Positions 21,163 to 32,765 of a DNA stretch of 64,000 nucleotides are shown in pieces; the stretch's first letter is position 1, and each line of letters opens with the position of its first letter. The notes under the pieces were generated by a model. That model was not told the DNA's origin. It was given only the letters and a program-made list of their open reading frames with translations, and searched no databases. The stretch lies in assembly GCF_024700885.2 (NCBI RefSeq), contig NZ_CP117016.1; one strand, 5' to 3'. Both the position numbers and the translations under genes were made by a program. Origin of the DNA: Escherichia coli. Lineage in GTDB: Bacteria; Pseudomonadota; Gammaproteobacteria; Enterobacterales; Enterobacteriaceae.

Positions 21163-22155
21163 TTACTCGCGGAACAGCGCTTCGATATTCAGCCCCTGCG
21201 TTTGCAGGATTTCGCGCAAACGGCGCAGGCCTTCAACCTGAATCTGGCGAACACGTTCACGGGTGAGGCCAATTTCACGACCTACATCTTCCAGTGTTGC
21301 CGCTTCGTACCCCAGCAAACCGAATCGACGTGCCAGTACTTCACGCTGTTTGGCGTTCAGCTCGAACAGCCATTTGACGATGCTCTGCTTCATATCGTCA
21401 TCTTGCGTGGTATCTTCCGGACCGTTCTCTTTTTCATCGGCCAGGATGTCCAGCAACGCTTTTTCGGAATCACCACCTAGCGGGGTGTCTACCGAGGTAA
21501 TGCGCTCGTTAAGACGAAGCATACGGCTGACGTCATCAACTGGCTTATCCAGTTGCTCTGCGATCTCTTCCGCACTTGGTTCGTGGTCCAGTTTATGGGA
21601 CAACTCGCGTGCGGTTCGCAGGTAAACGTTCAGCTCCTTTACGATGTGAATCGGCAAACGAATAGTACGGGTTTGGTTCATAATCGCCCGTTCGATCGTC
21701 TGGCGAATCCACCAGGTTGCGTATGTTGAGAAGCGGAAACCACGTTCCGGGTCAAACTTCTCTACCGCGCGGATCAGCCCCAGGTTGCCCTCTTCGATCA
21801 GGTCCAGCAACGCCAGACCACGATTGCCATAACGGCGGGCAATTTTTACCACCAGACGCAAGTTACTCTCGATCATCCGGCGGCGGGAGGCAACATCTCC
21901 ACGCAGTGCGCGACGCGCAAAATAAACTTCTTCTTCGGCCGTTAACAGTGGTGAATAACCAATCTCACCAAGGTAAAGCTGAGTCGCGTCCAACACACGC
22001 TGTGTGGCTCCCTGCGATAACAGTTCCTCTTCGGCCAAATCGTTATCACTGGGTTCCTCTTCTACTAAGGCCTTTTCGTCAAAAACCTCAACTCCGTTCT
22101 CATCAAATTCCGCATCTTCATTTAAATCATGAACTTTCAGCGTATTCTGACTCAT
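21163..22155 (-). CDS. rpoS: RNA polymerase sigma factor RpoS (sigma-38)
   Basis: ORF track gives 342 aa; trimmed to [11 protein letters not shown]... (330 aa) matching RpoS. Confidence 0.95.
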
Positions 22156-22217
22156 AAGGTGGCTCCTACCCGTGATCCCTTGACGGAACATTCAAGCAAA
22201 AGCCTGGTTCCGCCGAT

Positions 22218-23357
22218 TTATCGCTGCGGCAAATAACGCAGCGGGTTTACGGATTTCCCCTTGTAACGAATTTCAAAATGCAAGCGTGTTGAACTGGTTC
22301 CGGTGCTACCCATGGTTGCTATTTTTTGCCCCGCCTTCACTTCTTGTTGTTCCCGGACCAGCATTGTGTCGTTATGGGCGTAGGCACTCAGGTAATCATC
22401 ATTATGTTTGATGATAATCAGATTACCGTAGCCGCGCAGCGCGTTACCGGCATAAACAACGCGGCCATCTGCGGTCGCGATAATTGCCTGTCCTTTGCTG
22501 CCTGCGATATCAATCCCCTTGTTGCCCCCCTCAGAAGCGCCAAAGGTTTCGATCACTTTGCCCTCAGTCGGCCAGCGCCAGGTGGAGATAGGCGTACTGG
22601 TTGATGTACTGCTGACAGTCGGCTCGGTTGTGCTTGCTGTTGGCACCGTTACAGGCGCTGTGACCGTGGTCGCAGTTGGCTTGTTGTTCGGCAACATTTT
22701 GTTAGCACTCTGTTCACCCGAAGACTCAGAATACGTAATTGTCGGTTGCGACGCAACAGCAACGGTGGAATTTTGTGCAGGCTTGATCACAACTCCTTGC
22801 TCTGCTGCGTCGGCCTGGGTAATGGCATTTCCGCCAGTGATTGGCGTACCGGAAGCATTACCCACCTGCAAGGTCTGACCAACGTTCAGCGCGTATGGTG
22901 CCTGAATATTGTTGCGCTGAGCAAGGTCACGGAAATCGTTGCCAGTAATCCAGGCGATATAGAAAAGTGTGTCGCCTTTTTTCACGGTATAGGTACTGCC
23001 GCTATAACTGCCTTTCGGAATGTTCCCATACTGACGGTTATAGACGATGCGTCCGTTTTCCATCTGTACCGGCTGCTGAGCTACTGGCTGCACCGGCTGG
23101 ATTTGCGGTTGTTGAGTGGCCTGAATTTGTGGCTGCTGTACCGGCTGAATTTGCGGTTGCTGAGCTGTAGACGTCGTTCCCATTTTCGGCGGCGGCGTAA
23201 TCAACATACCAGAATTGGTATTTGCAGGCGCATTGCCATTAACGGAGCTGACCGGTGCCGGTGGATTTGAAGTGTCAGAACAGCCTGCCAGCCATAGCGA
23301 AACCAGTGACAAAGCCGCAATGCGGCGAACGGTGAATTTTGGGCTTCCCGCGCTCAT
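22218..23357 (-). CDS. nlpD: Murein hydrolase activator lipoprotein NlpD (LysM plus M23 domains)
   Basis: 379 aa; lipobox LAGC; internal QPQIQ repeats; upstream of rpoS as in K-12. Confidence 0.9.
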
Positions 23358-23496
23358 TTATCCCCCAGGAAAAATTGGTTAATAACCAGTGACATAATTA
23401 CCGTGCAAGGCACCATACTGAACACTGGAAAAGATGTTCACGATACGCTGACCTGCGGCAAAATAACCAGGAAAAATCCAGGTATTTCCTCACGTT

Positions 23497-24858
<1,362 letters not shown>

Positions 24859-32348: not shown

Positions 32349-32501
32349 CTACTTCTTCGATTCGTAAGCGAGAACTGCCTTAAACTCCATACCACGTTCT
32401 CTGATACTCAACTCACACAACGAGTCGCCTACCATCAGCGTGAATCCCAGTACTGTACAACACAGTACGATGATTGCCACAAGGGCATATTTTGTCAGCA
32501 T
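32349..32501 (-). CDS. Hok/Gef-family type I toxin (small membrane peptide), apparently intact
   Basis: 50 aa [53 protein letters not shown] with the SLCE...AYES signature of Hok/Gef toxins; GGAGG Shine-Dalgarno 6 nt upstream. Not in the ORF track (under 60 aa). Confidence 0.6.
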
Positions 32502-32765
32502 GTCTTGCCTCCCTGCAAAGAAGAGACTAACATTCGAATTGCTTAGGTTCGAACGCTGGCCTCAGGTTGATAGAAATATCGCCTGGGGCTTTTGTCCATC
32601 TGGAACCTCGCGAATGCTTAACGCCAGACAGCCTCAAGCACCCAACTCCATTCTATACCTGTTAATTCTCCCTGCGATGTTCACCTTTAAATGCCGGAAT
32701 GCTGCTCGCAAAATAAAAACGCCCCCATCATTTCTGACAGAGGCGTTTAATTTATCCGGCAATAT

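Follow-up and report, generated by a model that had tools for sequence, protein, structure and literature searches.

An octapeptide tandem repeat in the N-terminal linker of NlpD and its rare in-frame length variants in Escherichia coli

Inside nlpD, upstream of rpoS, a 64,000-nucleotide stretch of Escherichia coli DNA (the whole of which we refer to as the window) carries a run of near-repeats, and the locus raises the question of what these repeats are, whether their number differs between strains and whether, as the original prediction held, the region that contains them also contains the rpoS promoter. The reading that we consider very likely is that this DNA encodes an octapeptide tandem, (QQPQIQxx)x3 followed by a degenerate fourth unit, which forms part of a flexible linker spacer of NlpD. 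The gene and its surroundings are laid out as follows:

22218..23357, minus strand: nlpD coding sequence, 379 amino acids plus stop, a murein hydrolase activator lipoprotein (open reading frame list, Pfam and RefSeq annotation of matching loci).
23280..23357, minus strand: signal peptide with lipobox L-A-G-C, lipidated residue Cys26 (translation; lipoprotein nature from PMC5533458).
23055..23279, minus strand: N-terminal low-complexity linker, residues 27-101 (composition and gap placement in the alignment).
22863..22991, minus strand: LysM domain, residues 123-165, directly after the linker (Pfam).
22242..22523, minus strand: Peptidase_M23 (LytM-type) domain, residues 279-372 (Pfam and PDB matches).
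21163..22155, minus strand: rpoS coding sequence, 330 amino acids plus stop, downstream of nlpD (open reading frame list and RefSeq annotation of matching loci).

The assignment to nlpD was borne out by the Pfam domains, the pcm and rpoS neighbors and the RefSeq name. Pfam found LysM (PF01476; E 2.7e-12, 46.8 bits against a cutoff of 20.9) and Peptidase_M23 (PF01551; E 4.6e-33, 113.7 bits against a cutoff of 28.7), and a PDB search matched the C-terminal region to the LytM domains of DipM and EnvC. The protein thus has the lipobox cysteine (Cys26, invariant in an alignment of 30 NlpD orthologues), LysM followed by a C-terminal M23/LytM domain, and the position between pcm (23497-24123) and rpoS that is seen in the surE-pcm-nlpD-rpoS cluster (from the open reading frames and RefSeq annotation). 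RefSeq labels the matching segment 'murein hydrolase activator NlpD' in 5420 of 5426 complete E. coli genomes. In K-12, NlpD activates the amidase AmiC and, together with envC, has a cell-separation phenotype (PMC5533458).

Two side observations concern the reading frame itself. The PGAP/RefSeq start of nlpD is TTG codon 16 (window 23310-23312, minus strand), 45 nt into the frame that we read from the ATG, giving a coding sequence of 1095 rather than 1140 nt; this start looks like a mis-call because the signal peptide would lose its positively charged n-region (KFTVRR). The nlpD frames of Citrobacter amalonaticus AUH_CA_2023_1 (275 amino acids) and Enterobacter sp. EA-1 (172 amino acids) are short, against 369-390 amino acids in the other 28 species, and could reflect a frameshift, a pseudogene or an assembly error.

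The near-repeats themselves are real and in tandem. The 15-mers CTGGATTTGCGGTTG (23097-23111), CTGAATTTGTGGCTG (23121-23135) and CTGAATTTGCGGTTG (23145-23159) occur exactly on the plus strand with a period of 24 nt, and the degenerate pattern CTGRATTTGYGGYTG has three matches in the 64-kb window and none in 100 shuffles. Tandem Repeats Finder (TRF) reports one array (23087-23163, period 24, 3.2 copies, score 85). Codon shuffles gave maximum TRF scores of 61 (2000 shuffles of nlpD) and 58 (2000 shuffles of the linker only); because no shuffle of either set reaches 85, the array is not a chance match. The minus-strand translation reads the repeats as in-frame octapeptide units, so that the QPQIQ repeats predicted from them are indeed what they encode. 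The full in-frame array is 96 nt long (23162-23067, minus strand), lies inside nlpD at about residues 66-98, and is composed of the following parts:

23139..23162, minus strand: repeat unit 1 (u1), CAGCAACCGCAAATTCAGCCGGTA, encoding QQPQIQPV, residues 66-73.
23115..23138, minus strand: repeat unit 2 (u2), CAGCAGCCACAAATTCAGGCCACT, encoding QQPQIQAT, residues 74-81.
23091..23114, minus strand: repeat unit 3 (u3), CAACAACCGCAAATCCAGCCGGTG, encoding QQPQIQPV, residues 82-89, the partner of u1 in 48-nt deletions and duplication.
23067..23090, minus strand: degenerate unit 4 (u4), CAGCCAGTAGCTCAGCAGCCGGTA, encoding QPVAQQPV, residues 90-97.
23082..23099, minus strand: nested 9-nt QPV tandem, CAGCCGGTG then CAGCCAGTA, present in one, two or three copies across E. 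coli genomes.

At the DNA level u1 and u3 are the closest pair (21/24 identical positions, compared with 17/24 for u1/u2 and 15/24 for u2/u3), and the best repeat therefore falls in the 48-nt register (30 nt at 90% identity). Exact matches between unit copies are just 7-12 nt, the longest being 12 nt. The array arose by tandem duplication of a 24-nt unit; the copies then drifted apart, chiefly through synonymous changes and at residues 7-8, and in our reading this divergence now largely stabilizes the array.

We then come to the proposed overlap with the rpoS promoter, which did not hold. The major rpoS promoter lies inside nlpD and initiates transcription 567 nt before the rpoS ATG (PMC10948607); with that ATG at 22155, the start site maps to 22722, near nlpD codon 212. 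The two hexamers, TATTCT (-11 to -6 relative to this site) and TTGCGT (-34 to -29), are separated by 17 nt and give one further feature:

22722..22756, minus strand: internal rpoS promoter, -35 TTGCGT at 22756-22751, -10 TATTCT at 22733-22728, start site about 22722 (mapped from the distance in PMC10948607).

On the same scale the array occupies -345 to -440 and the interval in which the repeats were first flagged (23040-23170) occupies -318 to -448. At a distance of 345 nt from the start site, the repeat therefore neither contains nor adjoins the rpoS promoter: the array begins 345 nt or more from 22722, and neither the start site nor the -10 and -35 hexamers overlap 23067-23162. The tract plays no part in that promoter, which is situated downstream of it in nlpD, and it is transcribed only within nlpD and the nlpD-rpoS readthrough mRNA.

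These distances also bear on the idea that the repeat acts in cis on rpoS, for example as regulator sites or an upstream element in the promoter region, so that its copy number alters transcription. In its favor are the presence of the main rpoS promoter inside nlpD (PMC10948607) and the transcription of the repeat into nlpD-rpoS bicistronic mRNA from the nlpD promoters. The array, however, is far from the core promoter (-345 to -440), holds neither an Rfam family nor a sigma-70-like site, and differs among E. coli alleles only synonymously, which is constraint at the level of protein; moreover, Luo et al. 2012 (PMC3391293) likewise judged the 12-bp in-frame nlpD deletion of Salmonella Typhimurium UK-1 to fall outside the rpoS promoter. 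We therefore regard a cis-regulatory function of the repeat as extremely improbable. At gathering thresholds Rfam returned no family in nlpD, and a generic sigma-70 scan found no promoter in 22100-23500, a scan that also misses the known PrpoS because its -35 matches the consensus at just three of six positions and that is therefore uninformative on this point.

Whether the repeat number varies was addressed with a 311-nt query across the array (window 22950-23260), which matched 5420 of 5426 complete E. coli genomes, every sampled match spanning 311 nt. The usual allele, with three units, two QPV copies and a 379-residue NlpD, is carried by about 99% of the 5420 genomes. A 48-nt deletion that leaves one unit (363 amino acids) is present in 44 of the 5420 and arose in at least three independent events, and a 48-nt duplication that yields five QQPQIQxx units (395 amino acids) is present in one, a baboon isolate (at least one event). 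The QPV tandem accounts for the remaining variants: loss of 9 nt to one QPV (376 amino acids) in seven genomes of identical sequence (at least one event), and gain of 9 nt to three QPV (382 amino acids) in four, namely three that are identical and strain Rb-50 (at least two events, Rb-50 being counted as independent because a different QPV copy is duplicated). Together the length variants number 56 of 5420 (1.0%), from at least seven independent events, and there are five length classes. These counts are lower bounds, since the junction queries tolerate few SNPs and missed Rb-50, and three divergent records in the 90-95% identity band stand outside them.

The search strategy matters for these numbers. 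A whole-segment megablast with identity bands hides 48-nt gaps (wild type scored 98.7-99% against the +48 and deletion queries) because BLAST pieces are joined across the repeat, and a total of 12 variants obtained in that way was overturned when junction queries revealed the 44 deletion genomes. The 48-nt-deletion census accordingly uses a 64-nt query specific to the junction, with hits accepted up to an E-value of 1e-18, and the three of the 44 genomes that were translated each encode a 363-residue NlpD with a single QQPQIQPV unit. Synthetic alleles with one unit removed or added (-24 and +24 nt) gave no gap-free match among E. coli genomes. The observed steps are -48, +48, -9 and +9 nt, all in frame.

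The original prediction was that such repeats can vary in copy number, and it named an identical number in all strains as the outcome that would speak against it; the comparison of strains shows that copy number does differ (44 one-unit, one five-unit and 11 QPV variants among 5420), so that outcome did not occur. What stands is that one, three or five units are found. The variation is nevertheless rare: about 99% of genomes have the same length, and the changes come in 48- and 9-nt steps and never in steps of 24 nt.

Among the 44 deletion genomes, 28 are 5.39-5.57 Mb in size and share one deletion junction. Those labeled O157:H7 comprise TW14359, EC4115, SS17, SS52, JEONG-1266, F7386 and two Argentine isolates; the spinach isolate RM6067W is also in this large-genome set, and we infer that its unlabeled members are O157:H7 as well. 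The other deletion genomes are 14 of non-O157 type (4.5-5.0 Mb) and two pig isolates with a different crossover point. The O157:H7 strain TR01 keeps the normal 311-nt span. Across nlpD the three deletion alleles examined are 7-11 substitutions apart, as much as unrelated alleles, and the junctions fall at two microhomologies, CAACCGCAAAT (11 nt) and GTGCAGC (7 nt); from three nlpD backgrounds and two crossover points it follows that the deletion arose at least three times. Rare misalignment of u1 with u3 in the 48-nt register, or within the 9-nt QPV pair, produces in-frame deletions and duplications of this kind, and in our reading slippage at short microhomologies occasionally shortens or lengthens the tract.

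Such recurrence could point to a hypervariable contingency locus (VNTR), one in which high-frequency copy change switches or tunes the expression of NlpD or rpoS among close relatives. The events counted are three or more 48-nt deletions, a single 48-nt duplication, one -9 change and two +9 changes, and a 12-bp in-frame nlpD indel is also reported from S. Typhimurium UK-1 (PMC3391293). Against this, a single length is common to about 99% of 5420 complete genomes, the units are 62-88% identical in DNA with exact matches of at most 12 nt, and one deletion junction is common to the 28 large-genome (O157:H7-type) records, a pattern that points to stable inheritance and not to flicker. The changes are all multiples of 3, and therefore none can switch nlpD off. 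There are thus few length alleles, diverged units (adjacent pairs 15-17/24) and no shift of frame or of promoter spacing, and we give the contingency-locus explanation next to no likelihood. Classical VNTR and contingency loci resemble the array in being tandem DNA repeats in a surface-associated gene that change length by copy misalignment; the array differs from them in that its units are diverged, its changes are always in frame, about 99% of genomes share one allele and there is no on/off switching.

The window is not K-12 DNA. Its 311-nt segment matches strains 7/2 (human) and GPEC874 (chicken) at 100% identity, against 98.1% for K-12 MC4100, and only 261 of the 5420 genomes reach 99% identity to it. 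The K-12 tract encodes the same amino acids with synonymous DNA differences only, and tract differences were synonymous only among the E. coli alleles compared.

Two further observations were made in the course of the census. TW14359 carries RpoS accession WP_000081559.1 (locus positions 2278-2664), compared with WP_000081550.1 in the other loci examined; the accessions differ, and this strain therefore has an RpoS amino-acid variant besides the 48-nt nlpD deletion. The 311-nt segment had zero match in six of the 5426 complete E. coli genomes, in which nlpD, perhaps nlpD-rpoS, may be deleted or disrupted.

Beyond E. coli, 42 Enterobacteriaceae loci were retrieved with a degenerate DNA pattern for an invariant motif that closely follows the array. 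Four QQPQIQxx units are found in E. albertii. The three-unit form is shared by E. coli (including RM9387, the most divergent genome labeled 'E. coli'), E. whittamii and three unnamed Escherichia lineages, and two units are seen in a Cedecea-like group. In Salmonella, Citrobacter, Enterobacter and Kosakonia a single PQIQPV leads into a degenerate xQPxxQPxQ tract. Overall, most Enterobacteriaceae other than E. coli and E. albertii show one or two units or a degenerate tract. The lipidated Cys and GRIVY are 64-84 residues apart (median 70) in the 42 loci. Every Escherichia unit keeps the QQPQIQ core unchanged, with variation at residues 7-8, and across genera PQIQ recurs as the flanking residues drift. 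The P/Q-rich repeat is reported in E. coli and Salmonella and is absent from all Yersinia NlpD (PMC2736372).

Conservation of the core raises the possibility that QQPQIQ recognizes a partner in a sequence-specific way, for example one in the divisome, the outer membrane or peptidoglycan, as an interaction module whose copy number would set avidity. The invariant core in all Escherichia units and the recurrence of PQIQ across genera with drifting flanks would fit such a module, as would the weak midcell enrichment of a fusion that consists of the N-terminal linker only (PMC5533458). Several observations weigh the other way: the tract is wholly absent from Yersinia NlpD (PMC2736372), most genera have one recognizable unit, a successful O157:H7 lineage has one unit, and LysM alone suffices for septal localization (PMC5533458). 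We consider an interaction module very unlikely. Even so, the strict conservation of QQPQIQ exceeds what a pure length spacer needs and leaves room for a sequence-specific role as a minority possibility.

For the preferred reading, a flexible spacer, the evidence comes from composition, position and published work. The array makes up the final third of the N-terminal linker that joins Cys26 to LysM, and 77% of linker residues 27-101 are P, Q, S, T, N, G or A, with just 1 of 75 being F, W, Y, C or L. In the first 120 columns of the alignment of 30 sequences, gaps fall mostly in the Q/P tract and in a Ser/Gly/Asn patch upstream of it. This second indel-prone patch (NlpD residues ~40-50, window ~23205-23240, minus strand, alignment columns 43-55) varies in length by up to 6 residues between Enterobacteriaceae genera. 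The PDB search found no chain covering NlpD before residue 235.

An AlphaFold2 model of NlpD built on the 30-sequence alignment had a mean pLDDT of 35.5, low throughout because the alignment had merely 30 close sequences; it was discarded as evidence of disorder, the folded LysM and M23 domains scoring low too. With that model uninformative, the claim of disorder rests on composition and on published predictions, in which both NlpD linkers are predicted to be disordered by DISOPRED (PMC5533458). On this basis the N-terminal linker, including the repeat array, is probably disordered.

What such a spacer might do can be outlined from experiments on its neighbors. LysM is necessary and sufficient for septal localization of NlpD, and the N-terminal linker alone gives weak midcell enrichment (PMC5533458). 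Deletion of residues 29-64 leaves about 60% of the protein in the inner membrane, and NlpD without these residues does not rescue the chaining of an envC nlpD mutant (bioRxiv 10.1101/2021.01.05.425367). As a flexible Pro/Gln-rich spacer in which overall length and disorder would outweigh exact copy number, the tract would help Lol-dependent sorting of the lipoprotein and would give the LysM and dLytM domains access to septal peptidoglycan and AmiC. An adaptive version of this proposal, in which unit number (1, 3, 4 or 5) tunes the reach of NlpD to septal peptidoglycan/AmiC or its Lol sorting and the recurrent 16-residue deletion is adaptive and not neutral, we judge to be very unlikely; were it true, that deletion would give a measurable envelope or cell-separation phenotype.

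The comparison with known systems places the array as an already known, ordinary feature of NlpD. 'Unusual amino acid repeat sequences' of E. coli NlpD are named in the title of Ichikawa et al. 1994, and the repeats are also covered in Tidhar 2009. Gene, N-terminal position and P/Q-rich repeats are the same, and the feature is identical to the one described in another E. coli strain, from which it shows no structural difference; what is added here is the census of 5420 genomes and 42 Enterobacteriaceae loci. Like the disordered linkers of RcsF, Pal and NlpD studied by El Rayes et al. (bioRxiv 10.1101/2021.01.05.425367), the array is of low complexity and lies after the lipidated Cys/sorting signal in the NlpD linker, partial removal of which impairs Lol-dependent targeting to the outer membrane, but the NlpD deletion made in that work (residues 29-64) ends one residue short of the array (66-98). 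The UK-1 indel (PMC3391293) is likewise a strain-specific, in-frame length change of nlpD outside the rpoS promoter; it differs in species and in size (12 bp, compared with 48 or 9 bp in E. coli). The UK-1 12-mer had no match in the two Salmonella nlpD loci searched.

The repeat thus matters little on its own, being a long-known feature of a well-studied lipoprotein and lying outside the rpoS promoter. New here are the copy-number allele census and the finding that the one-unit allele marks TW14359/EC4115-type O157:H7 genomes; within the literature collection searched, we found no paper linking nlpD to these strains. The 48-nt in-frame deletion is a clean marker for 44 genomes, including TW14359/EC4115/SS17-type O157:H7 strains, and the natural 1-, 3-, 4- and 5-unit alleles constitute a ready allelic series for the study of linker length in NlpD sorting and amidase activation.

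Elsewhere in the window, away from nlpD, Rfam scans returned other matches. A full-length match to sok (RF01794) at 32486-32643 on the minus strand (111.7 bits against a gathering threshold of 59) suggests, as a sequence match, a chromosomal hok/sok-type toxin-antitoxin locus at these positions. Three adjacent tRNA matches (RF00005) lie on the plus strand at 1681-1754, 1762-1833 and 1855-1910, the third of which is a weak match (34.4 bits) that covers only part of the model (positions 8-63).
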